Shown in pieces: positions 47,251 to 63,553 of a DNA stretch of 64,000 nt. The notes below the pieces were generated by a model that saw only the letters and a program-made list of their open reading frames with translations, made no database searches and was not told the DNA's origin. Position 1 is the stretch's first letter. Every line of letters begins with the position of its first letter. The stretch is taken from assembly GCA_028865725.1 (NCBI GenBank), contig JAGWJP010000001.1:143143-207142 (forward strand). The letters are read 5' to 3'. The position numbers and the translations under genes are program-made. Origin of the DNA: Patescibacteria group bacterium (GTDB lineage Bacteria > Patescibacteriota > Minisyncoccia > UBA6257 > JACRHW01).

Positions 47251-48222
47251 ATGAGTCACATGGAAATGCCGCCCTTACAGGAATCAGGTTTGGAGACGAT
47301 GCGCCGCGCCGCGCAGGAGCTTATTGATCGTGCACACGAGGATATCAACGCATTATATCGACAAGACACTGACAAACCTCTCGAGCGAAGAGAGTATCAC
47401 AACATAGGACACACGAAAGGAGTAGAGAAAAACGCAGAACGTATTTTGCGTACGATCCAAGAAGCCGATTCTTCCCTTGGAGTTACTCCACGCGATGTTA
47501 TTCTCGCACGTCTTATTGCCGCATATCATGATATCGATCAGAGCCAGGATAAGCCGAATGAAGTCAAAGAAAATGTAGAAGGGGAAGAATTAACAAAATC
47601 TCTCCGCAAACGTTTTATCGCGACAATTGAAAAAAATAGCGCCGGAATTCTTCTTGGGCGCATGCAGCAGATGAATGAGGAACAAGGAGAATTATTTACC
47701 GAACATGATAAAGATATCGTGAAAGAAGCGATTCTTGCCACTGTTCCTGGGTTTGATCGAAGTCTGGGCACAGTGACTCAGCCCAACCTTCATGAAGATG
47801 CATCATTTATTACAAAGGCGGTCGCATTGGCAGATCTTGGCGCGATGATGGGGGGTGGTGAAGAGTTTTTGGAAGATGGCAACCGCGTATTTCGAGAGGA
47901 TAATATTGATATTGCAGAGGCTCTTGAACATCCAGAAATGATTGATGAGCGAAAAAAACGTTATTTTGCAACGCGCATACAAAACTGGTATCGCACGCAA
48001 GTCTCGTTTGTGGAAGGACGCCAGCAGATCTTTGAGATTCAGCTTCTTTCATTTCCTGAATCGGTTCGCGACAAGGTAAAAGAGCTTTTTAAGTTCGACG
48101 AGGCGATTGCTGCAGCAAGACAACGCATCGCAGATATTGAGAACGCCACGCAGGCAGGCCGCCCCTACTCATTTGAACAGATGATGGAATCGATGGGGTA
48201 TGCGCTTCCTTCAGCACACTAG
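47251..48222 (+). CDS. HD-motif protein, paralog A (323 aa), function unknown.
   Basis: YHNIGHTKGVEKNAERIL...LIAAYHDIDQ matches the H..H...HD pattern. The protein is colinear with the downstream paralog along its full length. Confidence 0.6.
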   Translation: MSHMEMPPLQESGLETMRRAAQELIDRAHEDINALYRQDTDKPLERREYHNIGHTKGVEKNAERILRTIQEADSSLGVTPRDVILARLIAAYHDIDQSQDKPNEVKENVEGEELTKSLRKRFIATIEKNSAGILLGRMQQMNEEQGELFTEHDKDIVKEAILATVPGFDRSLGTVTQPNLHEDASFITKAVALADLGAMMGGGEEFLEDGNRVFREDNIDIAEALEHPEMIDERKKRYFATRIQNWYRTQVSFVEGRQQIFEIQLLSFPESVRDKVKELFKFDEAIAAARQRIADIENATQAGRPYSFEQMMESMGYALPSAH

Positions 48223-48266: not shown

Positions 48267-48344
48267 TTGACTAATCTGCATCTTTAGTGTAGTATCTACT
48301 GCTAGAAAAGGCTCGTAAGAGCCTTTTGAAAAAAAGAAGGAGAG
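48267..48344 (+). promoter_or_regulatory. Promoter (TTGACT, 17-nt spacer, TAGTAT), leader hairpin and RBS. The module is nearly duplicated upstream of lemA at 63472.
   Basis: ttgact at 48267-48272; tagtat at 48290-48295; hairpin AAAAGGCTCgtaaGAGCCTTTT at 48306-48327; RBS gaaggagag. Confidence 0.5.
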
Positions 48345-48351
48345 ACGTAAG

Positions 48352-49332
48352 ATGGCAGAATGTAGGCGGAGACGTCGTAACGTGATTGTCCCACCACCGC
48401 TTTCGTGGGTAGTAATGAAGAATTTAATCAGGAGAGCATATATCGACATTGAAAAAATGTATCCCGGTGAGGGGTGGGCTGGAAACGATCCTTTTGTAGA
48501 GCGCGCATACCACAACATTACGCATACGCACGGTGTTGTGTGGGCTACAGATAAGATCTTGGGAACGATGAGCAACGATCCAAGGAGTGAAATTAATGCA
48601 CGCGGTATTAATCTCGGGTGTCTTATTGCCGCATGTCATGATATCGATCAGCGGCAAGGTGCGCCTACCGCAAGCCATATCAGCTTAGGCGGTCAAATGT
48701 ATACGAAAGAGATGCGCCATCGTTTTGTGGGGCTCATCGAAGAGAATAGCGTTGAGATTTTGCTGGGTCGAATGTGTCAGGAAAACATGACTTATGGCAC
48801 CGAGCTTTTTACCGAAGAGGATATGCGGATTGCGAGAGAGGCAATTTTGGCCACCGTTCCCGGATTTGATCCGGAATTGGGTACCGTGATTCAGCCAAAC
48901 CTGAGTGAAGGCGCATCGTTCATCACGCACGCGCTCGCACTTGCAGATCTGCATGCTGCGATGATGCGCGGAGGGGCTGCTTTTTTGGCAGACGGAAACG
49001 CGGTGTTTCGCGAAGAGAATATTGACGTTGCGAGAACGCTCCTGCGTTCCCCCAATATTTCCCAGGCAGAGAAAGATTTTATCTGTGAGCGCATTATGGC
49101 GTGGTATAGAATGCAGATTCGGTTTGCTGAAGGGCGTAAAATTGTCGTTCAAAAGCAGCTTCTTTGGTTGCCGGAAACGATGCGAGATCCGGTCATGAAT
49201 CTTTTTAAGTTCGATAGGGCGATTGCTGCCGCAAGAAAGCGTGTGAAATCAATTGATGCTAAGGTTCAGGCGGGGTATCCTCCTTCGTTTGAAGAAATGG
49301 TATTGTCTATGGGATATACCGTCATACTTTAG
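48352..49332 (+). CDS. HD-motif protein, paralog B (326 aa), function unknown.
   Basis: YHNITHTHGVVWATDKIL...LIAACHDIDQ. It aligns with paralog A with many identical blocks (ATVPGFD, GTV.QPNL, ASFIT, ALADL, DGN.VFRE.NID, LFKFD.AIAAAR, AG.P.SFE.M..SMGY). Confidence 0.6.
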   Translation: MAECRRRRRNVIVPPPLSWVVMKNLIRRAYIDIEKMYPGEGWAGNDPFVERAYHNITHTHGVVWATDKILGTMSNDPRSEINARGINLGCLIAACHDIDQRQGAPTASHISLGGQMYTKEMRHRFVGLIEENSVEILLGRMCQENMTYGTELFTEEDMRIAREAILATVPGFDPELGTVIQPNLSEGASFITHALALADLHAAMMRGGAAFLADGNAVFREENIDVARTLLRSPNISQAEKDFICERIMAWYRMQIRFAEGRKIVVQKQLLWLPETMRDPVMNLFKFDRAIAAARKRVKSIDAKVQAGYPPSFEEMVLSMGYTVIL

Positions 49333-50328: not shown

Positions 50329-51450
50329 TTACTTCAACCCTAAGGCCTTTTCTCCCTGTTCAAAGAGATCGAGAAACTCCCTTGATAGAATGAGCGGTAT
50401 AAATTTTTGCTTATCGCCGTCTGATAATTTTGGGAGAGAATCAATATCCCACGCTTCAAAACCTATTGCCTTGCCGGTTTCTATTTTCAAATCTTTGATA
50501 TCACCATCGAATAAATAAACATATTGGGCCCTGAGAGTATTGTTGGTGAGACCGGTAGCTTCGTCGAAACTCTTTTTTGGCATTGTCTTTACCAATTTCA
50601 GTTTGGCCGGATCAAGAGTGATCCCGGTTTCTTCCAGAGCTTCTTTTAAAGCGGTTGCTTCATATGACATTCCCGGATCTACATGACCACCAACCGTTGC
50701 ATCGAGTTTATCAGGATAGGTATCTTTATCTTTTGCCCGGTGTTGGAAGATTAGCTTGCGATCTGGTGTCATAAACCAAATATGAATTTCTCTGTGAAGC
50801 AATCCTTCTTTGTGGATTTTCTTTCTGTTCTCCAGTCCGATTACTTCGTTCTTTTCATTTACCACCTCAAGCAATTCAATACCTGAAATCCTATCATGCG
50901 CAATCGCAATTAGTCTGTTGAACGGTCCAAAGCCATCATCCGAAGTGATGTGTCCGCCCTTCGGAATGGTTATAACCTCAGATCCGAGAAGCTTTTCAAA
51001 TTTTTCTTTAGTTTTCTCGTATGGCACCCAAGGATCATTATCTCCCAATAAGGTGACCAAGAAGCCCAAATTGCTTCTTACTTTTGCAGTATCGATGGGA
51101 GTCTCTGTCCAAGGTTTTGCGATTGCTTCTGCATCCGGCCCCTCAAGATTTTCAAGATCAAACCAGCCAGCGACAAATATTGCGCCACCAACTTTTATAT
51201 TAATAGTTTGTAGATAGCGCATTATAGTCTGACACCCAATACTATGCCCAATAAAGTATGTATCCTGATCCGGAGTGCCAACGATACGATCAAGAAAGGG
51301 CACCCAATCCTCGATGGTAGGATTTTCAGTATGTGGCAAATCTGGACAGACAACCTCGTAGCCAAGCTTCTTGAATTCTGTGGTTGTCCAAGGCATCCAA
51401 TCCCGATCCGATGCCCCATCCCAACCATGAACAATAATTATTTTTTTCAT
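50329..51450 (-). CDS. Fusion protein: an N-terminal alpha/beta-hydrolase (YdeN/RBBP9-like serine hydrolase) joined to a C-terminal Nudix hydrolase.
   Basis: The N-terminus IIIVHGWDGASDRDW...YFIGHSIGCQ is Ser-hydrolase-like. The Nudix box GGHVDPGMSYEATALKEALEETGI is present. Confidence 0.7.
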   Translation of the reverse strand: MKKIIIVHGWDGASDRDWMPWTTTEFKKLGYEVVCPDLPHTENPTIEDWVPFLDRIVGTPDQDTYFIGHSIGCQTIMRYLQTINIKVGGAIFVAGWFDLENLEGPDAEAIAKPWTETPIDTAKVRSNLGFLVTLLGDNDPWVPYEKTKEKFEKLLGSEVITIPKGGHITSDDGFGPFNRLIAIAHDRISGIELLEVVNEKNEVIGLENRKKIHKEGLLHREIHIWFMTPDRKLIFQHRAKDKDTYPDKLDATVGGHVDPGMSYEATALKEALEETGITLDPAKLKLVKTMPKKSFDEATGLTNNTLRAQYVYLFDGDIKDLKIETGKAIGFEAWDIDSLPKLSDGDKQKFIPLILSREFLDLFEQGEKALGLK

Positions 51451-51860
51451 AAATTTTCTTTGATTTTTTTATAAATTTCCATAAGCACATCTTCAGGAAT
51501 CTTGAAACTATGGTCAGTTTTATAATTATGACCCCACAATTTATCTTCAAAAGTGGTGTTCAGAAATTCCTTTGGTTTTGCATAGCGAGGAATAAAATGT
51601 CCATGCAAATGTCTGGTTTCATTGCCAAGAAAAGCATAATTAAACCAATCTGGCTGAAAAACTTTACTGATCGCATTTTTCAAGTCCGTAAGAACTGAAA
51701 ATAATTCCTGCTGTTCTTCTTGTGTGGCTTCGGTAAGATCAAGAGCATTTTCTCTTTTGCACCAAACCACACATCGTCCTAAATATCCCTGATTTTCGTG
51801 GATATATACAGACCAGTATCTATATTCTTTGATTAAAAATTTTGAGTAGTTATCTGACAT
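51447..51860 (-). CDS. HIT (histidine triad) family nucleotide hydrolase/transferase.
   Basis: HLHGHFIPR histidine triad. It overlaps the downstream gene by 4 nt. Confidence 0.65.
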   Translation of the reverse strand: MSDNYSKFLIKEYRYWSVYIHENQGYLGRCVVWCKRENALDLTEATQEEQQELFSVLTDLKNAISKVFQPDWFNYAFLGNETRHLHGHFIPRYAKPKEFLNTTFEDKLWGHNYKTDHSFKIPEDVLMEIYKKIKENL

Positions 51861-51861
51861 A

Positions 51862-52818
51862 TTAATATGCGGTTGTCCTTGTTAAATGATAGGGCTTGTC
51901 ATCGGGGTATTTCGTTTGAGTATATAGCCAAAGATGATCGTTTATGTCCATAGAAGTGATTCCATCAAACCTTTTTTGAACCTCTTGTTTTATAAACTCA
52001 ACCGCCCAGATCGTATTAGCCCTGATTTCAATTTCTTCCTCGCTGTCATGCGGAATGGGGGTTTTAGAATCGATTTTTTCGGCCAGTGAATCGACATAGG
52101 AGAGAATGCCGAATTTTCTAAGTGCTTGAGGCAATTTATAATCAGCACAAGCGGTGATTTCATTGGCATTTTTGAAATCGCCGGGTCCCTGATGTTTAAA
52201 TAACTGGTAGATATCGGCAATTAAAAGCTGGGCTCTTTTATAAAAATCTATCTCTTTTCCTTTATAAATACTTACGTCTCTAAAAGAAGGGAACGTTTCG
52301 ATAATGAACTCGAGTAAATGAACAGCGTCTTTATTTGCTTGCAAAATAAAATCAGAGAAATTGCCGTTGTTCTTTGCGATCAATGCTTTACCAGTCTCGA
52401 CCATAATGACATGTCGTTCATTAAGCAATGGAATCTCTGAATTACCTCGCAGGATCTCGGCGAGTTCCTGCCTGCTCATTTTAGATCGATAGTCGGCACT
52501 TAAAATATCTCGTCCTTCATCTATGGCTCGCTTGAGTGCAACAATCATTCCCCATGCACCGTCAAATTGCTGATCTTTATAAGTTATCGTCCATTTGGGG
52601 TTGCCCCAATAGCTGAAGCTAAGAGCGTTAAAAACAAATAGAAAGTTAAGTTTGTCATCATCGGATAATTCGGAAAAACCAAACGGGGCGGCTGAGAGCC
52701 AGTGCTGAACGTTGGTATGGTCAAAATTCTTTGCGAATTCCAAAACCTTGTCTTGGTTAATTCGGACAAATTGAGATTGATCGATTACCAACTTAGTTGT
52801 TTCTAAAACTTTATTCAT
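51862..52818 (-). CDS. Uncharacterised protein. It possibly belongs to the DUF2419/queuosine-salvage (QNG1-like) family, but that assignment is tentative.
   Basis: 318 aa with FNALSFSYWGNPKW. The family assignment rests on recollection only. Confidence 0.35.
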   Translation of the reverse strand: MNKVLETTKLVIDQSQFVRINQDKVLEFAKNFDHTNVQHWLSAAPFGFSELSDDDKLNFLFVFNALSFSYWGNPKWTITYKDQQFDGAWGMIVALKRAIDEGRDILSADYRSKMSRQELAEILRGNSEIPLLNERHVIMVETGKALIAKNNGNFSDFILQANKDAVHLLEFIIETFPSFRDVSIYKGKEIDFYKRAQLLIADIYQLFKHQGPGDFKNANEITACADYKLPQALRKFGILSYVDSLAEKIDSKTPIPHDSEEEIEIRANTIWAVEFIKQEVQKRFDGITSMDINDHLWLYTQTKYPDDKPYHLTRTTAY

Positions 52819-53138
52819 AGTGTTTCAATAGGATAAATATCGAAAGCAACCTCCTCGTAAGGATGAACCGCTTTCACTTTTTTAATTACTTCGTCCAAAA
52901 TGGATCGAGGAACGACTGCTTCGATCCGCTCTTCTTCGACCGATTCATAGTTTCCACTTTTACCGATAGCTGGGTGAGAATTTTCATTGCCACGATAACG
53001 TCCGATACCTCTGGATGAAAAAGAACAAAAATCATAATTGCCGACTTTACCAGCACCGGCTTCTCCAAGTGTCTGTCTTACAATATCAGCATGGGATAAT
53101 GGAACAAACACTACTAATTTCACATCTTCTGTTTTCAT
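52815..53138 (-). CDS. Small protein (107 aa) resembling the PII-like insert domain of NIF3/YqfO proteins.
   Basis: ...HPYEEVAFDIYPI C-terminal motif. It starts 12 nt after the stop of the PHP-ATPase and overlaps the next gene by 4 nt. Confidence 0.4.
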   Translation of the reverse strand: MKTEDVKLVVFVPLSHADIVRQTLGEAGAGKVGNYDFCSFSSRGIGRYRGNENSHPAIGKSGNYESVEEERIEAVVPRSILDEVIKKVKAVHPYEEVAFDIYPIETL

Positions 53139-53149
53139 TGTTTTATAAA

Positions 53150-56029
53150 TTAATCTGGAAAACTATATTTTTGTTCGCGTTTTTGAAATGCCTCTTTGCC
53201 ACCCTCGAGTATCTCGCAGACATGCTGTCTAATCCCTTTGCGATACAAGATTGCTGGTTCTTGCTCGGCATTGAACTCGAAAGTATTTTCAAGAGCACCT
53301 GACACATATTCAAATCTGTATTTTTTATTATCGCGCCCGATCTCTTGACCGGCTTGGTTCGCGACAATTGTCTCCTCCGAATCTGCACCGACTACAAGGT
53401 TTGGATTATGCGTAACAATAATGATTTGCCTCTGCAATTTTTTCTTTTTCAGAAAGTCTACAAGATCATCGTATACAGAACGGTTGTCGAGATCGTCTTC
53501 GGGCTGATCGAGAAGTATAGGCCATTCTTCATTGCTCAAATTTATGAGCAATTGAAGCAACACGAGGCCTTTCTTTCCGGGAGACATTTTATCAAGCGAA
53601 TCGTTTTTGTAGAAAATTCTAAAATCCAGGAAAAAATAATTATCTAGCAACTTTGTCGAGGCATCTTTTGCTTGGCGATTCTTGACTGTGTTAATAGTGC
53701 CACCAACTAATCCTTCGAATACCGTTGTGATATTAGCAAGGTGCTTTGCTGGGTCATATTTATAAATAAATTCGTCGCCCCACTCAGCTTCGACAATTAC
53801 ACGCTTCAGATCGTGTTTATTTATATATTCCTTGACCACGTCGGAATTAAAAATATCGTCATTAAAACTTACATGGACTCCGAGTGTGATATCTCCAAAT
53901 TTACTCTCAAATTTCTTGAATTCATTCCGCAGGTTTTCGTACTTAGCGACAATCTGCTTATAGGATTCAATGATGCTGTCGGTCTTCTTTTTATGAGACG
54001 CTTTTTTGGTCTTCAGATTATTTCTCTTTATTGCTATTTCGTTCAATTTTTGTTGCTCTTTCTTGATAGCGTCTGTTTTCTCTTGTAACTCTGATTGCAA
54101 TTGGATTTTCGCAAGTAATGGTGCAAGCTCTGCTTTTATCCTTGTCATTTCCGCATTATGAACTTTAAGCTTTGCATCTATCGTGGTGATAAGGTTGAGC
54201 GTGGCAGTTTTTAGCCCAGGTTCGAAAGAATCAATTACTTTTAATTCGCTCTTAAACTTCGTTTTTATGTCGGCGTCATTCAAATACTCTTCGCATTCGT
54301 CTGCGGTTGTTCGCAATGATTCGACTTGAGAAATCAGGCTAGTATTTAAATTCTTTATGGTCTTTTTATCCTCTTCGAGATTTGAAACCTGTGCATTGAT
54401 TTCCTTTTCCTTTGCCACTAATCCCTCATACTGTTTGAGCTGTTCATCGGTCAGACCCGATTTTGCCTTGATAGCATCTGCCTGATTTTGAAGCGTTTTA
54501 ATATAACTCTCTATACCTTTCTCATCCCCTGCCTGTTTCAACTCCTCCTCGGTCTTTCCGATATCGTTGCGATCCAAAAATAACTCATTGATTGCAGTTG
54601 GGATAGACTTAGCTTCAGCTTTTATTTCTCGAAGGGTCTCCTCATATTTTTCTTTTACCGCTGGATCTTGCAAGATCACGTTGAGTACGAACTCATTCAG
54701 GGCCTCACGGCTCTTAATATTGGCTTCCGAAAGTGTATTCAGGTAACGCTGTGGTATATAAAGGATTTTACGTTCTTTTGATTCTTCTTCCGCTGATCCC
54801 TCCGGAACCCGAAGCAGAGTGTGCTGGCCGTCTTTCCATGTGACTTCGAAATTGAAATCCACCGAGTTATCAAAATCGTATTTGACCGGAACCCCGCTGT
54901 CTGAAGTACGACTTTTAACTTCCTGCTGGTCGATCGTTTTGGCCATGTAATAAAGCAGGAGAGATTTACCCGTAGATTTTCCACCGATAATGGTGGTCAG
55001 GTTCTGATTCACTTCTATAGGATCACTTCCAAATTTTGCATCACTTGTATTATCCAAAAAACGGACTTTGTCTATGACGAAATATGACTTTTTCTCCTCC
55101 GGTTTCTGGGGTCCGACAAAAATGCGCTGATCAGATTCGAAGACTATCTGTTTAAGACCTTCGAACGTTGGATCGGCTTTAATCCAAAGGAAGTTACCGT
55201 CTTGATCAGCTTTACCAAGATCACGCAATGATCTGGCGTCCGAGCTTATATGAGAACAAAACTTTGAGGTAAGCGACGTGTTAGTTTTGATATAGTCAGA
55301 GACGGAAGCTGATGACTGTTGACGCTGAGACTGCAAAAGGTTCATCTTTTGATAATTAAAGATATCAGCCAAGTGTGTCCGATCAGTCGCCGTACGTTCT
55401 TGGAAAAGACCGTTACTGCTGTTGCAATGAGGATAAATTATAATCCCTCCGTTTCTTTTGACTTCGTCTATGATTTCCTTGATATCAGTGCTTGTGGTCG
55501 TGAGAACTCCTTGGCTGTTTGTCCGGTTATTGATATTGAATTTTGTTAGAAACGCTTGAATGCCGGCAGAAAATGTAGACTTTTGGTACAGCTTGTCCGA
55601 AAAGAATAACAACATGTGAATGCCTTGGCAGTTGATCTCTACACCAGGGATGATTTTACAACGAGACTCTTTTGAATACTCTATGAACGTATCGAGCAGG
55701 CAATCGTCAAAATAATTATGATCGGTTATGCCTATACAATCTAAGTCGGGATTGAAGGTATCGAGAAAAGCAAAATAATTCCTGATGTGATTCACGCACC
55801 TATCGTTTTTTGTAATTTGAGCATTATTAAAATAAACCTTCGAGTCGTAGAGCAAGGCATTTTCTTCGCCCCCAACCTTAGCGATGTACTGTTGCCAAGC
55901 TGTCGGGTTAGCCGACTTTAATTCCTCTGAATAGTTTGCGAGAGGGATATAGTTGTCGTCCAAAATGGTCTGTGTTTGCAGGTCCCACTTTCTCCATATC
56001 GAACCTTTTGGATAAGGAAAATTATTCAT
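53150..56029 (-). CDS. 959-aa fusion of an N-terminal PHP-family phosphoesterase, a long coiled coil and a split ABC/SMC-type ATPase. It is a candidate defence effector.
   Basis: PHP-like His/Asp motifs CIGITDHNYFDD, IIPGVEINCQGIHMLLFF and IIIYPHCNSSNG. Walker A TTIIGGKSTGKSLL. About 350 aa of heptad-like K/E-rich sequence. Signature-like MSPGKKGLVLLQLL. Walker B PILLDQPEDDLD. H-loop IIIVTHNP. Confidence 0.75.
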   Translation of the reverse strand: MNNFPYPKGSIWRKWDLQTQTILDDNYIPLANYSEELKSANPTAWQQYIAKVGGEENALLYDSKVYFNNAQITKNDRCVNHIRNYFAFLDTFNPDLDCIGITDHNYFDDCLLDTFIEYSKESRCKIIPGVEINCQGIHMLLFFSDKLYQKSTFSAGIQAFLTKFNINNRTNSQGVLTTTSTDIKEIIDEVKRNGGIIIYPHCNSSNGLFQERTATDRTHLADIFNYQKMNLLQSQRQQSSASVSDYIKTNTSLTSKFCSHISSDARSLRDLGKADQDGNFLWIKADPTFEGLKQIVFESDQRIFVGPQKPEEKKSYFVIDKVRFLDNTSDAKFGSDPIEVNQNLTTIIGGKSTGKSLLLYYMAKTIDQQEVKSRTSDSGVPVKYDFDNSVDFNFEVTWKDGQHTLLRVPEGSAEEESKERKILYIPQRYLNTLSEANIKSREALNEFVLNVILQDPAVKEKYEETLREIKAEAKSIPTAINELFLDRNDIGKTEEELKQAGDEKGIESYIKTLQNQADAIKAKSGLTDEQLKQYEGLVAKEKEINAQVSNLEEDKKTIKNLNTSLISQVESLRTTADECEEYLNDADIKTKFKSELKVIDSFEPGLKTATLNLITTIDAKLKVHNAEMTRIKAELAPLLAKIQLQSELQEKTDAIKKEQQKLNEIAIKRNNLKTKKASHKKKTDSIIESYKQIVAKYENLRNEFKKFESKFGDITLGVHVSFNDDIFNSDVVKEYINKHDLKRVIVEAEWGDEFIYKYDPAKHLANITTVFEGLVGGTINTVKNRQAKDASTKLLDNYFFLDFRIFYKNDSLDKMSPGKKGLVLLQLLINLSNEEWPILLDQPEDDLDNRSVYDDLVDFLKKKKLQRQIIIVTHNPNLVVGADSEETIVANQAGQEIGRDNKKYRFEYVSGALENTFEFNAEQEPAILYRKGIRQHVCEILEGGKEAFQKREQKYSFPD

Positions 56030-56034
56030 AAATA

Positions 56035-56832
56035 CTAAAGAATTACAGTCACTTTTTCATAAAGCATAGGCCAGCTATCCTGACGCATTCTAAATTTAGT
56101 ACCGTGGTTATGACCACTGCGAGCATCGAAGTCGACGAGAATCTTTGCTTCTTCAATAGCTTTCAAAAATCCTTCAAAGCTGAATTTTTGAAGCATCATA
56201 ACCTTATTGTATTTGTAATATTCCTTACCTCGGACAGTTTTGACCTCTGCCTGAACATAAAAACTATTCAAAAGTTTTGTACCGGCCTTATGTTCAAGAT
56301 CATCAAAACCCCAATATGGCTGTGGATTAAGTTCGCCAAGTCCTACTCGTTCCTTTACCACCTTAAGCCATTCGGCGTGTCGGATGTCCACGCTCTTCGC
56401 ATCAAATGATATTAAGACTTTCTTTTCGGTCCGATCGATTTTTACCATAAAACCACGATCGCTACGTGTAAGACCATGAATAGTCTGTCGAAAACTCATC
56501 TCACCTTTTGGATACTTCTTGCCATCTTCCTGATGCGCCCAACCATATTTCGGTAAAAGAACTTGTGGCACAAAACGAATAGCTCTGGGGGAGGGTTCAA
56601 TGTGAAATAAAGTACAAAGAGAAGTTGAATTCAATCGTTGGGCTTTTAATTCCCATTCGGCCGCATTTGGAATAGGTAGATTATTTTCTTTGATTCCGAG
56701 TAAGTCTTCGAGAGTATTCCCGATACCGCCGTGATTGCCCTTGCGAGCATTAGGAACCCACCCCATATTGGCAATCTCTTTTAATTTTTCAATAAGGGCC
56801 GGCTTTGTGTAAATTTTCGGTTTGTTTGGCAT
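56035..56832 (-). CDS. Putative Type II restriction endonuclease (by recollection, MvaI/BcnI-like).
   Basis: Immediately downstream of the MTase. Start moved from the listed TTG (56913, overlapping the MTase by 77 nt) to the ATG at 56830-56832 (MPNKPKIYTK), 4 nt after the MTase stop. The family call is tentative. Confidence 0.5.
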   Translation of the reverse strand: MPNKPKIYTKPALIEKLKEIANMGWVPNARKGNHGGIGNTLEDLLGIKENNLPIPNAAEWELKAQRLNSTSLCTLFHIEPSPRAIRFVPQVLLPKYGWAHQEDGKKYPKGEMSFRQTIHGLTRSDRGFMVKIDRTEKKVLISFDAKSVDIRHAEWLKVVKERVGLGELNPQPYWGFDDLEHKAGTKLLNSFYVQAEVKTVRGKEYYKYNKVMMLQKFSFEGFLKAIEEAKILVDFDARSGHNHGTKFRMRQDSWPMLYEKVTVIL

Positions 56833-56836
56833 ATCT

Positions 56837-57658
56837 TTATAAAAGTTTTTGTTGGGCTTTATGGTTTTTAATTCTCTTCTCGGCCATCTCGCAATACTCC
56901 GGCGAAAGATCAATACCGATATAATGCCGGTTAAAATTTATTGCAGAAAGTGCGGTAGTACCAGAACCCATAAATGGGTCCAGAATAATTTTCGCATTGG
57001 TAGACGACACAATACGATCTATAAGATTTACAGGGAAAGCGGCTGGATGTTCGTTATTCATCTCCTGTGTAAATTCCCATACGTCACCGTGGCCACTTGC
57101 CTTAGGTGATAATTTAAATTTAGGTTTGGCGATAAGATAGATCACTTCGTATGTCGGCACAAAGTAACCGGGGTTAAAATTGAAACCGCCCTTTCTTCTC
57201 CAAATTATTATCTGGCGCACAGGAAAGCCACTTACAATATCCTGCCGATCCTGCAAAACACCTCCTTGTACGCGCCATTTATGATTGTAGAAAATCGCAC
57301 CATCTTCAGGAATAATCCTCATCATCTCCGCCAAGCATTCACGTTGCCATTTCACATACTCATCATGAGGCATACAGTCGTTATGGTGGGAGTAACCTTT
57401 TTGAAGTGCGGCATTTGCCCATTTACCACCACGGCCATCTTTCATGCCATTACCTGTAGAATTTTTAAGATTATAGGGTGGCGAAGTCACTATTAAATCA
57501 ACCGAGCCATCAGGTATTTTTTTCATGATATCAACTGCATTACCGCAGATGATTTTATTTAAAAAGTGATTAGGATATTCTAACTTCATAACCTTAGATT
57601 TAATGGGGCTCGTCTTTATTTTTACTTGAGTTTCCATATTATTTTGAATGCTTTTCAT
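56837..57658 (-). CDS. Beta-class DNA amino-methyltransferase (N4-cytosine or N6-adenine).
   Basis: Motif IV DLIVTSPPY precedes motif I FMGSGTT, which is the beta-class order. Confidence 0.85.
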   Translation of the reverse strand: MKSIQNNMETQVKIKTSPIKSKVMKLEYPNHFLNKIICGNAVDIMKKIPDGSVDLIVTSPPYNLKNSTGNGMKDGRGGKWANAALQKGYSHHNDCMPHDEYVKWQRECLAEMMRIIPEDGAIFYNHKWRVQGGVLQDRQDIVSGFPVRQIIIWRRKGGFNFNPGYFVPTYEVIYLIAKPKFKLSPKASGHGDVWEFTQEMNNEHPAAFPVNLIDRIVSSTNAKIILDPFMGSGTTALSAINFNRHYIGIDLSPEYCEMAEKRIKNHKAQQKLL

Positions 57659-57842
57659 TTTTCTTTTTTACGTTACTCGTCTCCTCAAGAAAGGTGTTGA
57701 GGTCTGATTGTTTGATCCGCCAAACCCCCAACTTAGACGCTTTTAATCTACCGGACTCGATATATCGGGTTACGGTGCGAGTATGTACTCGTAATATTTC
57801 GGCAATTTCCTCAATGGTAAAAAGTTTTTCGATTTCGTTCAT
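57639..57842 (-). CDS. Small HTH DNA-binding protein (excisionase/MerR-type HTH). It may be the R-M controller.
   Basis: FTIEEIAEILRVHTRTVTRYIESGRLKASKLG..WRI. It overlaps the MTase start by 20 nt. Confidence 0.65.
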   Translation of the reverse strand: MNEIEKLFTIEEIAEILRVHTRTVTRYIESGRLKASKLGVWRIKQSDLNTFLEETSNVKKKNEKHSK

Positions 57843-58003
57843 AAAAATAAATTAAGTCGTTGGTATCATTTTACCGCTTTCAGATTTCGTTGTCAAAATT
57901 GCCGGTTTTTGTCATAATGTACTTATGAGCTAATCTGATAAAGTTTAGTGAATGGGAGACATAAAATAGGTCCGATTCACTAAAATTTGATTAATCGGCT
58001 TGA

Positions 58004-58026
58004 GTTATTCGAAAATTTCGAATAAC
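58004..58026. promoter_or_regulatory. Perfect 11-bp-arm palindrome (gttattcgaaa a tttcgaataac) just upstream of ORF 58038. It is operator-like.
   Basis: Read directly from the sequence. Confidence 0.45.
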
Positions 58027-58037
58027 TGCATAAAAAA

Positions 58038-58721
58038 ATGAGTATGAAAATGAAAAAGGTCGCCAAGACCACCGAGTACAAATTTAATATAAGAAAACCG
58101 GTTGAGTTTATGTCCACTTACCGGCTATCAGTGGCTACCACTGAAAAGATTTTGCGGTTATCGATGAAATCAGCTGGCATAACCGACAGCGTTCAGATAA
58201 TAAAACACAATCAACCAGCTATCGGGCTTCTAACGAAAGAAATCATCGAAACCAAGCTCGAGGTAAAGAGTATCCGGTCCCTTTTAGAACGCCGAACTAG
58301 CAAATTTGAAGGGTTAACCGAATATGATCAGCATTTTATAAATACATTTGCCAAAGTGGCCGCAATTTCTTTCGCTGAATATTTTTCTCAAGGCAAAACC
58401 AAACCAGTATTAAACCAGACAATTCTCCACTTGTCGGCCGAGGCAGATTTATACCGTGAGCCGAAAAACAAGTATTGCTACCCTATGGGCAAAGAGCAGT
58501 CGCGTCACCAGATAGTTAAATACTTGATTGGCAAAGGATATCAAGCCACACCGGATATTCGCATGGCAACCAGTGCCAAAAGCGACTCATCCGTCCGTTC
58601 AGCAATCATGAAAATAAACGCTAAAGCCAAGCACGACCTAGAAATAGAGAAGAAATTGATTGAGGGCCGTCGCACTGGTGGTTACCGCATCAATCCAGAA
58701 TACAGAATTTTCTTGAAGTGA
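58038..58721 (+). CDS. Hypothetical protein (227 aa), first gene of a phage/plasmid-like module.
   Basis: ORF; a terminator lies downstream. Confidence 0.45.
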   Translation: MSMKMKKVAKTTEYKFNIRKPVEFMSTYRLSVATTEKILRLSMKSAGITDSVQIIKHNQPAIGLLTKEIIETKLEVKSIRSLLERRTSKFEGLTEYDQHFINTFAKVAAISFAEYFSQGKTKPVLNQTILHLSAEADLYREPKNKYCYPMGKEQSRHQIVKYLIGKGYQATPDIRMATSAKSDSSVRSAIMKINAKAKHDLEIEKKLIEGRRTGGYRINPEYRIFLK

Positions 58722-58758
58722 CGCTCGTAGTCCTCAAGTAATGTTAATAACTTTTCCG

Positions 58759-58787
58759 AAACGCTCACAAAATGGGCGTTTTTTGTT
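58759..58787 (+). terminator. Intrinsic terminator.
   Basis: AACGCtcacaaaatggGCGTTtttttg. Confidence 0.45.
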
Positions 58788-58848
58788 TGCCAAAATTTAT
58801 CCGCGGACTATTTAAGGCATAGCGGGTCGTTCGCTACGATAAACGCAT

Positions 58849-59064
58849 ATGTTAAGCGTTGAGCGAGTCAAACAATTAGCGAACGATCCCACTCTCTCTG
58901 ATAAGCAAATCGAGGAAATCAGAGACGGCTTTTATATGCTCTCACAAGTGATCTTTGAACAGTGGCAAGCCGAGAGAAACAAGGCTAAAGAAGCTGAGCA
59001 AAAAGATAATAAGAAAATTAATAATCAAAATGAATATGAAAAACCAACCGGACAACAGCAGTAA
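58849..59064 (+). CDS. Hypothetical small protein (71 aa).
   Basis: ORF only. Confidence 0.35.
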   Translation: MLSVERVKQLANDPTLSDKQIEEIRDGFYMLSQVIFEQWQAERNKAKEAEQKDNKKINNQNEYEKPTGQQQ

Positions 59065-59296
59065 TTTTATCACCAGCGACTTCTACGTAGCCGCTTTTTT
59101 GCTCGCTAGCAAATATAAGCTTGTCGGCATAAACAAAACTGACATTCGTCGGTTTCGTTTTGTTTTTGTTGATCAGCCGGGACGGGTCCAATTCGTGGAA
59201 GGATATTTTTTAGGTTATACCGACGTGAATGTTAAAGAATTCGTCTCAGCGATTAAGGAACTCAAATCGCTGATGTATAACGACGCGATCAGTTGA
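59030..59296 (+). CDS. Hypothetical small protein (about 88 aa), overlapping the previous ORF by 35 nt.
   Basis: Internal ATG of listed ORF 58955..59296. Translation: MNMKNQPDNSSNFITSDFYVAAFLLASKYKLVGINKTDIRRFRFVFVD.... Confidence 0.4.
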   Translation: MNMKNQPDNSSNFITSDFYVAAFLLASKYKLVGINKTDIRRFRFVFVDQPGRVQFVEGYFLGYTDVNVKEFVSAIKELKSLMYNDAIS

Positions 59297-59315
59297 AAAT
59301 AACTGAATATGAAAT

Positions 59316-60089
59316 ATGGAAAATCTGCCATTCGAAATAGATAACAATGATTACGTAAAGCTTCCCCGAAGCATCAAGACCGCCCTTGTGGACGGCTATT
59401 TGAGTTTTGAGGAATACTCGGTCCTTGTCTGGCTGTGGATCAATGCCAATCCCCGGATCGGCAAAGCCCATGTAAGCTACGCCGGCCTTTCCAAAGACTT
59501 CAAGGAAAAATACTCCAAGAATCACATCAACCGGCTGATGTTAAACCTAAAGTTCAAGAAGTGGATATGGTTTCCAGTACAGCAAGGTCGCAGAAGTTCG
59601 TTCCATGTTGATATCGCCAATTATCCTTTATCTAACGGTGGTTTTGTTGAGCTTGAGAAGCGTATCAAACAGAAGTCCGGCAGAAGTGAAAGTGATACTG
59701 GTACACAATTACCAACAGAAGTGTCGACAGAAGTCAGCGACGTTCGGCAGAAGTTGGAAAGCGACAAAAATGCTTTGGTAGATAGGTTTTCGTTCGGTTC
59801 AGAAAGTTCGCTCGGCAGAAGTTCCAAAAACGACAACGAGAATGAAAATAAAAACAACCGATCGAATCGTGGTCGACCCGTAAGAGAATTTACCCCCAAG
59901 TCTTACGAGGAACAGAAATGCTGGGAGATAGCTCAAAAGTTGGGAGAAAAAGACATGACCTTCATCCTCTCAGCTCTCAAAAAATACGGACTGACAAGAA
60001 TTGAGGAAGCTTACCGGTCAGTCATGGATCAACCGAGCGAGAAAATCCGAAGCCGAGGTGCGTATTTTAATCGTCTACTAAATTTGTAA
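59316..60089 (+). CDS. Putative replication initiation or replisome-organiser-like protein. It has a wHTH N-terminus and a DnaD-like C-terminus. The call is tentative.
   Basis: The N-terminus LVDGYLSFEEYSVLVWLWINAN is HTH-like. A low-complexity acidic/Ser linker follows. The C-terminus CWEIAQKLGEKDMTFILSALKKYGLTRIEEAYRSV is helical. Confidence 0.35.
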   Translation: MENLPFEIDNNDYVKLPRSIKTALVDGYLSFEEYSVLVWLWINANPRIGKAHVSYAGLSKDFKEKYSKNHINRLMLNLKFKKWIWFPVQQGRRSSFHVDIANYPLSNGGFVELEKRIKQKSGRSESDTGTQLPTEVSTEVSDVRQKLESDKNALVDRFSFGSESSLGRSSKNDNENENKNNRSNRGRPVREFTPKSYEEQKCWEIAQKLGEKDMTFILSALKKYGLTRIEEAYRSVMDQPSEKIRSRGAYFNRLLNL

Positions 60090-60090
60090 C

Positions 60091-60588
60091 ATGCCCAAGC
60101 TCACATACCTAAGACCAAAACATAAACGAGCCATAGAAATGAAATGGCAGGGTTCTCAGTACAAAGAAATTGCCAACGAGTTTGGAGTCTCGATTGATAC
60201 GGTTAAGTTTTGGTTTAGAGCGAAAGGTTTTTTGAGAGAAGCCTATAGTAAATACAGAGGCGAGCAAATTCTGAACAGGGATATTCAGGAAAAACAAGAA
60301 CGAATAAAAGCACTTACCGGCAATGGTTCGCATCAGGGCACAACGGACATCATAAATTCTTTGAGTCTTCCGATCCGTAAAATGTTCCAAAAGTTACCGG
60401 TGAAAGAAAAAGACGCTGTAATGGAACGATTCTATGAATTGAATCGGGAGTCCGAGGAGAGATTTAATAACTACACTAAACGGCACCAACTCACACCAAA
60501 TGACACCAAAAATGAGAAAGAAATAAATACACTTACACCCAATAAGCCCCCAAATAAGCCACCGAACCGTGCAAAACCATGCGAATAA
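60091..60588 (+). CDS. HTH-domain protein (sigma-70 region-4 or terminase-small-subunit-like).
   Basis: KRAIEMKWQGSQYKEIANEFGVSIDTVKFWFRAKG. Confidence 0.45.
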   Translation: MPKLTYLRPKHKRAIEMKWQGSQYKEIANEFGVSIDTVKFWFRAKGFLREAYSKYRGEQILNRDIQEKQERIKALTGNGSHQGTTDIINSLSLPIRKMFQKLPVKEKDAVMERFYELNRESEERFNNYTKRHQLTPNDTKNEKEINTLTPNKPPNKPPNRAKPCE

Positions 60589-60761
60589 CTACACTTAAAT
60601 ACAACAAAATGCAGTTAATTACAGCGTTTGAGCAAAATAAATGGAGATAAATAGTGATAAATGGTGTTTTTTGGAGAAAAATCCGAGACTGTGGGCAACT
60701 CGAGCTTAGCTTGTCCACCAAAATAGCGTATGTTGTGTGTTGAGAAATCTCTGCGAAAAAT

Positions 60762-62357
60762 ATGATGAAAGGAATTATTTACACAAGAGTATCAAGCGAT
60801 GAACAGGTCAAAGGTACCTCGCTGGAACACCAAGAGGAACTTTGCCGGAAATACTGCAAAGACAAAGGCATCGAAGTCGATGTGGTTTTCCGTGAGGAAG
60901 GAGAAAGTGCAAAAGACCTGAGCTTGCAGAATCGCAAAAGGTTTCTGGAAGCTCTTGAGTTCTGTCGCAAGAACAAAGACAAGGTCCAGGCCTTTGTGGT
61001 TTTGCGCGTGGATAGATTTGCCCGTAATGCCGATGACCATTTTGCTATTAGAAAAATCCTAGCGACGTATGGCACAACACTGCATTCAGTCACCGAACCG
61101 ATCGGAAATGAGCCGGTAGCTAAGCTTTTGGAAACATTCCTTGCCGGTATTGCTGAATTTGATAACGCCATCAGAAAACAAAGATGCAGTGATGGAATGC
61201 TTGCCAGAATCAACCAAGGTATCTATCCATGGAAACCGCCGATCGGTTATAAATGCGTTAACTTCAAAAAGCACGGCGAGAAAAAGACCCACGCCGATCC
61301 GCCCCACGAGCAGATATTCCCGATTATCCAAAGAGGACTGAAAGAATTCGCTCAGGGTCTGCACTCGCAAAGCGAGCTGATGAGAAAACTGGACGAATGG
61401 GGTCTTAAGGATTTGACCGGAAAGAAAAGCACGCCCCAGCTTGTAAGCCGATTAGTGACCAACTACCTAAAGTTTTATGCCGGCATAATTACCAATCCGT
61501 GGACAGGCAAAGATGTTGAGGGCCAGCATATTCCGATGATTACCAAAGACGAGATGTATCAAATCAAAATGATCCTGACCGGTAAAAAGAGATTGGTGGC
61601 TAAATACAACATCTTCAATCCAGACTTTCCGCTTAGACGAACCGTAACCTGCGCTGTTTGCGGACGACCGCTGACCGGAAGCGCGCCTCGAGGCGGAATG
61701 GGAGGACGATATAACTATTACCACTGCGGAAATAAGAACTGCCGGGTATTTGGTAAAAGCACACCCAAGCTGGAATTGGAAAAGATGTTTTTTGAATATT
61801 TAGAGAGAGTTACTCCCAAACAAGCGTTCCTCGATATTTTCAAGGAAAGCGTGATTGATATTTGGAAAGAAAAAGGCCAGAGGTTTGAAATGGAAGCCGA
61901 GAAGTGGAAAAAGAAGCTGGAAACGCTTGAGGCAAAGAAAAAACGCATCTACGAAATGCGAGAGGACGGTTCATATACCAAAGAGGAGTTTGTGGAACGG
62001 AAAGATGAAATTGAGAACGAGATATCAACCACCAGAATATTATCCAACGAAGCCCGAATCGAGCAGTTCGATATTGAAGGATCAGTCATTTATGCGACCA
62101 AGTTCATAAGCAACCTCGGCCGACAATGGTTCGACCTTGTGCCACACTTACAGCCCAAGTTCCAGAAACTAGTCTTCCCAGAAGGAATACCGTTTGAATG
62201 GAAAAAAGGATTTGGAACTGCCAAATTAGCAGTCATTTACGAGATGAATCGGGAATTCTCGACTGAAAATTCCGCTTTGGTGGACCTAGCGAGAATCGAA
62301 CTCGCGTCTCTACAATGCGAATGTAGCGTCTTGCCACTGGACCATAGGCCCAAATGA
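60762..62357 (+). CDS. Large serine recombinase (phage-integrase type).
   Basis: The resolvase catalytic domain IIYTRVSSDEQ carries the catalytic Ser. A recombinase domain and zinc ribbon CAVCGRPLTGS...YYHCGNKNC follow. The last 25 codons are antisense to tRNA-Ala. Confidence 0.85.
   Translation: MMKGIIYTRVSSDEQVKGTSLEHQEELCRKYCKDKGIEVDVVFREEGESAKDLSLQNRKRFLEALEFCRKNKDKVQAFVVLRVDRFARNADDHFAIRKILATYGTTLHSVTEPIGNEPVAKLLETFLAGIAEFDNAIRKQRCSDGMLARINQGIYPWKPPIGYKCVNFKKHGEKKTHADPPHEQIFPIIQRGLKEFAQGLHSQSELMRKLDEWGLKDLTGKKSTPQLVSRLVTNYLKFYAGIITNPWTGKDVEGQHIPMITKDEMYQIKMILTGKKRLVAKYNIFNPDFPLRRTVTCAVCGRPLTGSAPRGGMGGRYNYYHCGNKNCRVFGKSTPKLELEKMFFEYLERVTPKQAFLDIFKESVIDIWKEKGQRFEMEAEKWKKKLETLEAKKKRIYEMREDGSYTKEEFVERKDEIENEISTTRILSNEARIEQFDIEGSVIYATKFISNLGRQWFDLVPHLQPKFQKLVFPEGIPFEWKKGFGTAKLAVIYEMNREFSTENSALVDLARIELASLQCECSVLPLDHRPK
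62278..62351 (-). tRNA. tRNA-Ala (CGC) with G3:U70 and encoded CCA.
   Basis: On the minus strand: gggccta/taggtcc acceptor with the G3-U70 wobble, which is the Ala identity element; anticodon arm ctaca-uuCGCau-tgtag; T-arm gcgag-ttcgatt-ctcgc; discriminator A; CCA. Confidence 0.8.
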
Positions 62358-63471: not shown

Positions 63472-63553
63472 TTGACTAATTCATATTTTTGTGTAGTATA
63501 TATCACGAAGGCTCGCAAGAGTCTTTTGAAAAAAGAAAAGGAGGATCTGAATT
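63472..63553 (+). promoter_or_regulatory. Promoter (TTGACT, 16-nt spacer, TAGTAT), leader hairpin and RBS for lemA. It is a near-duplicate of the element at 48267.
   Basis: ttgact at 63472-63477; tagtat at 63494-63499; hairpin AAGGCTCgcaaGAGTCTT at 63508-63528; RBS aaaggagg. Confidence 0.5.

Follow-up and report, generated by a model that had tools for sequence, protein, structure and literature searches.

An operon of HTH, methyltransferase, endonuclease and TrlF genes as the probable cargo of a serine-recombinase island at tRNA-Ala in a Patescibacteria genome

We analysed a 64,000-nucleotide (nt) stretch of the metagenome-assembled genome of a Patescibacteria group bacterium (contig JAGWJP010000001.1, positions 143,143 to 207,142), called here the window, in which closely spaced minus-strand genes join a type II restriction-modification (R-M) system to a 959-amino-acid (aa) protein of the TrlF family. 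The reading that we favour, with a probability of about 0.7, is that a helix-turn-helix (HTH) gene, a methyltransferase gene, an endonuclease gene and the TrlF gene form one operon (HTH-M-R-TrlF) on an island inserted at tRNA-Ala by a serine recombinase, that TrlF is an anti-phage enzyme resembling Ppl, and that the 107-aa gene following it belongs to the housekeeping chromosomal flank. The locus would thus be composed of known kinds of element (an MvaI/BcnI R-M system, a TrlF protein and a serine-recombinase island) and would not constitute a new two-gene system. It would also be a clear case, in Patescibacteria, of a defence island that a serine recombinase targets to a tRNA gene.

Five minus-strand open reading frames (ORFs) had been grouped into a block by the first-pass annotation, an earlier reading of the letters of the window. 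All five are present in the window's ORF list, and their spacing is as tight as had been described. The HTH and methyltransferase genes overlap by 20 nt, or are 1 nt apart if the second ATG is taken as the start; 4 nt separate the methyltransferase and endonuclease genes (taking the endonuclease ATG at 56832), 5 nt the endonuclease and TrlF genes, and 11 nt the TrlF and 107-aa genes. A consensus scan identified no terminator-like sites between the genes of the operon, nor at the TrlF/107-aa junction. Within the divergent intergenic region upstream of the HTH gene lie two promoter-like sequences, both consensus matches only: TTGACA-17-TAAAAT on the minus strand (57896-57868; 11/12 matches), 26 nt upstream of the HTH ATG, and TTGTCA-17-CATAAT on the plus strand (57890-57918), facing a 227-aa gene. 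The block as first drawn ended at 52815; this limit did not hold, as the co-directional array runs on down to 50329 through genes of the Q_salvage, HIT and Ser_hydrolase-NUDIX families, the first of which overlaps the 107-aa gene by 4 nt. The domain calls for the five proteins (HTH, beta-class amino-methyltransferase, restriction endonuclease, PHP-ABC-ATPase and PII/NIF3-insert-like) were confirmed by Pfam, by AlphaFold and Foldseek, and by alignment to the structure 2gx8.

The 959-aa protein had been thought to correspond to no named system. Against the NCBIfam model NF045780, "TrlF family AAA-like ATPase", it scored 492.9 bits (E 3e-147), exceeding the cut-off of 350 and covering model positions 34-943 of 944. 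Its score of 158 bits against the Spaf_1101 model was below the cut-off of 475, and the Ppl model NF042955 gave 101.1 bits, with the best stretch at aa 809-951, where the cut-off is 1000. Ppl was also its only notable match in PADLOC (63 bits, 3e-18), over aa 510-951 in the C-terminal half. Judged by its sequence, the protein is a member of the named TrlF family and is distantly related to Ppl, a validated single-gene defence protein, and the earlier claim of novelty falls away. Both the 959-aa and the 107-aa proteins are identical to database proteins with KGI50_ locus tags.

Sequence motifs and an AlphaFold model built on 40 homologues (mean predicted local distance difference test score 78, above 90 over most of aa 10-200) divide TrlF into a PHP phosphoesterase domain (aa 1 to ~300), an ABC ATPase N-lobe with the Walker A motif GGKSTGKS (aa 349-356), a coiled coil (aa ~440-712) and a C-lobe with the signature SPGKKG (816-821), the Walker B motif ILLDQPE (838-844) and the H-switch H874. 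These four ATPase motifs were invariant across 48 homologues. Foldseek matched the N-terminal ~300 aa to the PHP esterases 3o0f/3e0f and the PHP domain of PolC, and the remainder to the heads, with coiled coils, of MukB, Smc, JetC, Rad50 and LmuB. The window protein agrees with the TrlF family in length, in its layout of a PHP domain and an SMC-like ABC ATPase head split by a coiled coil (about 900-970 aa), and in its near-full coverage of the family model; its clade differs from the others by a ~70-aa helical insert after the first PHP strand (aa 22-95) and by its PHP motifs, described below.

The TrlF family comprises 1,045 clusters at 50% identity (E up to 1e-30). We found it in 544 plasmid records, mostly from Klebsiella, Escherichia and Enterobacter and also from Lactococcus, Staphylococcus and rhizobia, and 367 of these records are conjugative plasmids; the plasmid homologues carry the TrlF name from the NCBI annotation pipeline. 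Only 4 of 50,697 phage records held a TrlF-like gene, and a scan of IMG/VR viral contigs found neither TrlF nor the 107-aa protein. Searches of PDB sequences with TrlF alone and with an 11-sequence profile returned no significant match, and no Ppl chain was detectable. In the searchable literature the acronym appeared in unrelated uses only, and no paper addressed the family or the origin of its name. The wider interest of the locus lies at this level, in a large family that is frequent on clinical plasmids and has no experimental study in that literature.

We reasoned from the genomic neighbourhoods of TrlF, with loci retrieved by two peptide patterns and genes called by a simple longest-ORF rule. 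R-M genes lay directly upstream on the same strand in 19 of the 30 informative loci (window included), at gaps of -8 to 79 nt, which agrees with the earlier suggestion that the PHP-ATPase rides on an R-M system. In these loci TrlF was the last gene of the R-M operon, or an internal gene in two type I operons, and the systems were of types I, II, III and IIG. This placement in the sample, at the 3' end of R-M operons of every mechanistic type or inside the two type I operons, suggests that restriction may be functionally coupled to a Ppl-like end-sensing enzyme. The most frequent Pfam families among 112 TrlF-flanking proteins were ResIII, N6_N4_Mtase, N6_Mtase, SWI2_SNF2, Resolvase, Recombinase, HNH, Methylase_S, HSDR_N, GmrSD_N and Eco57I, in sharp contrast to a control set around the 107-aa gene. 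Together with its presence on hundreds of plasmids, these variable contexts, dominated by R-M and recombinase genes, bear out the description of TrlF as a defence-island gene and mark it as a gene of mobile elements too.

Several arrangements recurred. The layout of the window, HTH-N6_N4 methyltransferase-CfrBI-TrlF, was found in three loci (L017, L021, L023). Type I systems appeared as hsdM-hsdS-TrlF-hsdR-YgjP (L011, L012) and as hsdR-hsdM-TrlF (L013, L022). In others, TrlF accompanied an EcoRI-like methyltransferase with GmrSD_N/HNH (L016, L019, L031), methyltransferases with a 337-aa protein (L005, L007, L014), a methyltransferase with an SNF2 helicase (L010), systems of ResIII types (L025, L029), a 1,319-aa ResIII-Eco57I enzyme (L034), or a DpnII-like enzyme with a methyltransferase (L020). 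Ten TrlF loci had no R-M genes; there TrlF lay beside recombinases, a helicase, Tra genes (L035) or housekeeping genes. On Klebsiella and Enterobacter plasmids it stands alone beside Gabija-like, Abi and toxin-antitoxin genes, on a Staphylococcus plasmid it is again solitary, next to a recombinase gene, and on a Lactococcus plasmid it lies upstream of a type III R-M system.

Three further features of these neighbourhoods were seen. A TIGR02391 (Hypoth_Ymh) gene lies 4 nt upstream of an 83-84%-identical TrlF in the complete genome CP006914 of candidate division WWE3 and in a groundwater contig (L001 7175-7996 and L008 9124-9996), where a divergent AlwI-type R-M system with a LexA/S24-Dam fusion methyltransferase adjoins TrlF. 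The 337-aa protein lies between N6_N4 methyltransferases and TrlF (L005 5198-7987; L007/L014 8983-12883), has no Pfam or NCBIfam match and is probably a restriction endonuclease not yet classified. The two TrlF proteins that it accompanies share only about 28% identity. After hsdR in the TrlF-containing type I operons comes a YgjP-like metallopeptidase-domain protein of 107-109 aa (L011 15775-16098, L012 15753-16082), which has the length of the window's 107-aa protein and is unrelated to it.

The tRNA-Ala(CGC) of the window and the 107-aa gene lie on the same strand, 9.1 kb apart, and the interval contains the serine recombinase, a small accessory module and the HTH-M-R-TrlF operon. Most simply read, the operon is the cargo of a serine-recombinase island of about 53,150-62,277, inserted at tRNA-Ala and with its cargo end at the 107-aa gene. 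The recombinase, of about 500 aa, has both a Resolvase (PF00239, 1.5e-26) and a Zn_ribbon_recom (PF13408) domain, matches the phrog_95 integrase (1e-67) and lies beside a tRNA gene, as expected of a large-serine-recombinase element; the last ~26 codons of its ORF run antisense through the tRNA-Ala gene. Eight other loci also have a large serine recombinase no more than about 6 kb from TrlF, in many cases next to a tRNA gene. The accessory module encodes proteins of 227 and 257 aa without a family match, a 113-aa DUF5659 protein and a 165-aa sigma70-region-4-like HTH protein. The plus-strand genes had been described as a phage- or plasmid-like module ending in a serine recombinase at tRNA-Ala. 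The recombinase and the tRNA stand, and the phage character does not, as Pfam and PHROG scans of the module gave only DNA-binding-type matches and no phage structural genes; the gene content indicates part of a small integrative element, not a prophage. Base composition was tried as a boundary marker and rejected: neither guanine-cytosine (GC) content nor GC at third codon positions sets the 107-aa and downstream genes apart from the island.

In other sampled loci, recombinase ORFs run antisense at their 3' ends through complete tRNA genes (L014 17781-19394, tRNA-Ser; L017 5440-7062, tRNA-Pro and tRNA-Ser; L026 15149-16834, tRNA-Glu) or through part of one (L024 1318-2976, tRNA-His). Because the recombinase ORFs run through tRNA genes in this way, the arrangement suggests an attachment site within the terminal part of the recombinase gene, in which case integration would set the C-terminus of the recombinase.

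Residues 161-261 of 2gx8, a NIF3-related protein, form its PII-like insert, and it is with these that the 107-aa protein aligns (E 1.5e-31). The 107-aa protein resembles the insert of NIF3/YqfO proteins (PDB 2gx8, 2nyd) but stands alone: the dinuclear-metal-centre body of NIF3 is absent, so it does not belong among NIF3/YqfO proteins proper. No Pfam, NCBIfam or PADLOC model matched it. Its 1,469 homologues, typically 75-85% identical, are spread across Paceibacterota, Moranbacteria, Wildermuthbacteria and other lineages, and within Patescibacteria its gene is found much more widely than TrlF. In a set of 137 proteins encoded beside the 107-aa gene, RibD_C, GDSL lipases, NUDIX, HIT, Peptidase_S51 and Ser_hydrolase were the commonest Pfam families, and no R-M family was among the top 25; the Q_salvage, HIT and Ser_hydrolase-NUDIX genes of the window match this usual neighbourhood. 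We conclude that the 107-aa gene and its downstream neighbours are housekeeping bystanders and probably form the chromosomal flank of the island.

In ten loci (L046, L052, L058, L060, L061, L068, L074, L078, L094, L111) the 107-aa gene has a same-strand tRNA gene upstream, at distances of 2 nt to about 1.5 kb. The tRNA is for Ala in five of them and for Gly, Leu, Ser, Thr or Arg in the others. In L060 and L061, which have no island, the 107-aa gene follows a tRNA-Ala(cgc) at 0.6-0.8 kb; in L068 a tRNA-Ala(ggc) is 2 nt upstream, and L046 and L052 have tRNA-Ala(tgc). Since the 107-aa gene commonly follows tRNA genes, the targets of these islands, occasional adjacency to TrlF is accounted for. 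L002, L005 and the window prompted the idea that the region upstream of the 107-aa gene is a defence hot spot; this idea was set aside in favour of tRNA adjacency as the simpler explanation.

The R-M system of the window looks, from its genes, intact and ordinary, as had been proposed. The methyltransferase matches PF01555 (N6_N4_Mtase) over the full model at 137.8 bits (cut-off 26.7) and the PADLOC model MTase_II PDLC03305 at 6e-123, and its TSPPY motif precedes the FxGxG S-adenosylmethionine motif, the order of the beta class. In amino-methyltransferases, SPPY instead of DPPY indicates N4-cytosine methylation; because of its SPPY motif, this enzyme is probably N4-cytosine specific. The longest ORF of the adjoining endonuclease spans 56035-56913, and homology begins only at residue 31-41. 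The protein matches PF15515 (MvaI_BcnI) at model positions 1-227 of 227 with 226 bits (cut-off 25), and PADLOC REase_II at 3.8e-84; one fused methyltransferase-endonuclease model of PADLOC spans both genes in order. The pair resembles MvaI and BcnI systems in this end-to-end PF15515 match next to a beta-class SPPY methyltransferase, and differs from them by an excisionase-type HTH gene upstream and TrlF downstream. The 67-aa HTH protein, besides its Pfam family, matches TIGR01764 (2.7e-11) and the phrog_66 excisionase, with a weak match to PADLOC mad1 (1.9e-9); it is predicted to be either the R-M controller or the directionality factor of the element.

An endonuclease of the MvaI/BcnI family is expected to have a CCWGG- or CCSGG-type target. 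Under a maximal-order Markov model, and over the 64 kb of the window only, CCWGG occurs 39 times against 63.7 expected (0.61) and CCSGG 45 times against 54.6 expected (0.82), and GGWCC and GATC are near expectation. The depletion of CCWGG is no more than suggestive, and is compatible with MvaI-type (CCWGG) specificity of the R-M system.

The PHP site of the window's TrlF clade is remodelled, and this is one of the points of interest that remain at the level of the family. In this clade (23 sequences, at 58-93% identity to the window protein) W-D-L-Q-x-Q stands in place of H-x-H as the first PHP motif, and S-D-x-R in place of D-x-H as the last; the window residues are Q18-T-Q20 and D264-A-R266. 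Other TrlF clades have Q-x-H/D-x-H or the fully canonical H-x-H/D-x-H. R266 is fixed in 23/23 members and Q18/Q20 in 21-22 of 23, and D16, D24, D25, D103, H104, E131, H138, H201, C202 and D264 are invariant. Pairwise identity within the clade is 66-67% in the PHP domain, 70-75% in the ATPase lobes and 53% in the coiled coil. The PHP domain is thus conserved about as well as the ATPase lobes, and better than the coiled coil, which indicates that it is under selection and is not decaying.

Ppl offers the closest functional guide to TrlF. Papers that cite Xu et al. (Mol Cell 2026) credit that study with its mechanism, and its standing as a single-gene anti-phage system reportedly goes back to Gao et al. 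2020. Ppl is described as a single-gene anti-phage system with an ATPase and a PHP domain, and is reported to act as a 3'-5' exonuclease on single-stranded DNA; nucleoside triphosphates (NTPs) that bind both domains inhibit it, and 3'-OH DNA ends activate it (review PMC12904381). The window's TrlF has the same two domains, and Ppl models match its C-terminal half, but it falls far under the Ppl cut-off, three of its PHP metal-ligand histidines are replaced, and its gene is operonic with an R-M system where Ppl stands alone.

We propose that a large serine recombinase inserted the roughly 9.1-kb island on the 3' side of tRNA-Ala(CGC), directly ahead of the conserved chromosomal 107-aa gene. The cargo would be a single operon, read from the divergent promoter region, of the HTH, beta-class methyltransferase, MvaI/BcnI endonuclease and TrlF genes. 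By analogy with Ppl, TrlF would be a DNA-end-directed ATPase/phosphoesterase that counters phages or other invaders. It would most likely act on the breaks that the co-expressed endonuclease cuts in unmethylated invading DNA, as a second layer that destroys the restricted DNA or blocks its repair. Action on breaks is the most economical hypothesis because R-M systems of types I, II, III and IIG all break unmodified DNA. The 107-aa gene and those following it would now lie downstream of the inserted operon with no intervening terminator-like site. A broader and decidedly more tentative idea, which we consider possible but rather less than even, is that TrlF is a general third R-M component, recruited to or activated by the breaks of the co-transcribed endonuclease, be it of type I, II, III or IIG, and finishing off the restricted DNA. 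In the QxQ/DxR clade the PHP domain might then have altered chemistry or be an end-binding module, and the activity may matter most in small-genome Patescibacteria with limited end-processing.

Several observations weigh against the reading of a Ppl-like TrlF on a tRNA-Ala island. The searchable literature holds no experiment on any TrlF protein, and the proposed defence role draws on association and on distant homology to Ppl. In a motif comparison, made with no direct Ppl alignment, the window's TrlF lacks the canonical PHP metal-binding histidines (HxH, DxH) needed for exonuclease activity; because three of them are replaced, Ppl-like exonuclease chemistry may not be applicable. MvaI and BcnI leave 5' overhangs, and Ppl is reported to need 3'-OH overhangs. 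The R-M linkage of 63% holds for this sample only, and TrlF stands alone in about one third of the sampled genes as well as in three inspected enterobacterial and staphylococcal plasmid copies, so it needs no R-M partner. Between 46 and 64 kb, neither an attachment-type (att) direct repeat of the tRNA-Ala 3' end nor any long direct repeat was found that would fix the left end of the island. Such absence is expected for serine recombinases, but it leaves comparison with other loci as the sole means of placing the left boundary. Leftwards, GC content remains low as far as about 50 kb, and the 107-aa gene of L005 has a TrlF cassette on one side and a recombinase module on the other, which hints at a larger island also enclosing the 107-aa gene cluster.

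The first-pass annotation had proposed that TrlF and its small PII-like neighbour are an undescribed two-gene anti-phage module attached to the R-M system. The 11-nt gap without a terminator would suit such a pair, as would the single other adjacency that we found, L005/L006, in which a TrlF of 480 bits against NF045780, 28% identical to that of the window, lies 13 nt upstream of a 78%-identical 107-aa gene and behind methyltransferase genes. This proposal is largely refuted by co-occurrence, which was 0/33 for the 107-aa gene within 10 kb of TrlF (32 loci from GTDB genomes and one metagenome contig) and 0/27 for TrlF near the 107-aa gene in metagenomic loci with at least 3 kb of upstream sequence. 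The wider spread of the 107-aa gene, its pairing with housekeeping hydrolase genes and its habit of following tRNA genes tell against it as well, and we regard a two-gene module as very improbable. Least probable of all is a housekeeping role for the 959-aa protein in DNA repair, as an analogue of SbcC, Rad50 or RecN with a built-in PHP nuclease. An SMC/Rad50-like fold and weak SMC_N and PHROG SbcC-like matches lend themselves to it, but the curated assignment is TrlF and no NCBIfam model for Rad50, SbcC or RecN matched. Its occurrence is scattered, with copies 74-85% identical in genomes that carry the labels of different phyla, and its locations are plasmids and islands. The fear that the protein would prove to be an SbcC or RecN ortholog in a core position is met by the lack of conserved synteny and by an association with defence islands that was kept.

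The main rival to our reading, though an unlikely one, has TrlF guard the R-M system as PrrC or RloC would: an abortive-infection nuclease, kept idle for as long as the R-M enzymes function and triggered when a phage inhibits restriction or DNA is damaged. PrrC and RloC are R-M-linked ABC-ATPase anticodon nucleases encoded within or beside type I R-M operons, RloC having a Rad50-like coiled coil, and PrrC occupies the hsdS-hsdR position in the EcoprrI locus, where TrlF sits in L011 and L012; linkage to all R-M types would also fit a generic sensor. TrlF has, however, no anticodon-nuclease domain and no sequence-family relationship to these proteins, its effector being the PHP domain. Many TrlF genes stand alone, and a physical interaction with the R-M enzymes is hypothetical; Ppl, the only studied relative, is reported to sense DNA ends and NTP levels, not R-M status. 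Less probable again is a service to the mobile element, in which TrlF would act in exclusion or maintenance, for example against competing plasmids or elements, in the manner of Wadjet or Lamassu, and would merely be co-carried with R-M. The heads of JetC (Wadjet) and LmuB (Lamassu) are among its closest structural matches, and TrlF is frequent on conjugative plasmids, beside serine recombinases and in a Tra-gene region (L035). Operonic coupling to R-M genes, at spacings of a few nucleotides and with insertion inside type I operons, nevertheless exceeds co-carriage, and no kleisin, JetA/B/D or LmuA-type partner genes adjoin TrlF. The head and coiled-coil fold of SbcCD/Mre11-Rad50, JetC and LmuB is the top Foldseek class of TrlF, but those systems have a separate Mre11/SbcD, JetD or LmuA, whereas the nuclease of TrlF is fused and of the PHP type. 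The sampled neighbourhoods contain no SbcD/Mre11, JetD or LmuA-type genes beside TrlF, and no CxxC zinc hook is visible in its sequence at the coiled-coil apex.

Table 1. Features of the proposed island and its flanks, in window positions
Feature	Position	Strand	Evidence
HTH_17 protein, 67 aa, first gene of operon	57639-57842	-	PF12728 4e-16
Beta-class DNA methyltransferase	56837-57658	-	PF01555 6.9e-40
MvaI/BcnI-family type II restriction endonuclease, 265 aa from ATG at 56832	56035-56832	-	PF15515 8e-67
TrlF-family protein, 959 aa	53150-56029	-	NF045780 492.9 bits
107-aa stand-alone NIF3-type PII-like domain; chromosomal flank, outside island	52815-53138	-	2gx8 alignment
Q_salvage; chromosomal flank, outside island	51862-52818	-	Pfam
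HIT; chromosomal flank, outside island	51447-51860	-	Pfam
Ser_hydrolase-NUDIX; chromosomal flank, outside island	50329-51450	-	Pfam
Divergent intergenic region, 195 nt, promoter-like sites	57843-58037		Consensus scan and sequence
Accessory module of small integrative element	58038-60588	+	Pfam, PHROG scans
Large serine recombinase (integrase)	60762-62357	+	Resolvase, Zn_ribbon_recom, phrog_95
tRNA-Ala (anticodon CGC), 3' end towards island; proposed integration end	62278-62351	-	ARAGORN

Just left of the block lie two tandem paralogous genes of ~325 aa each (47251-48222 and 48352-49332), whose DNA is 78% identical over a stretch of 78 nt; a weak HD-domain match was seen in the first. A 27-nt hairpin-containing sequence, AAGGCTCGTAAGAGCCTTTTGAAAAAA, occurs at 48308-48334 and again at 63508-63534, in copies 15.2 kb apart with 93% identity. 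Although the two copies roughly bracket the low-GC stretch, they likely represent a shared type of terminator.

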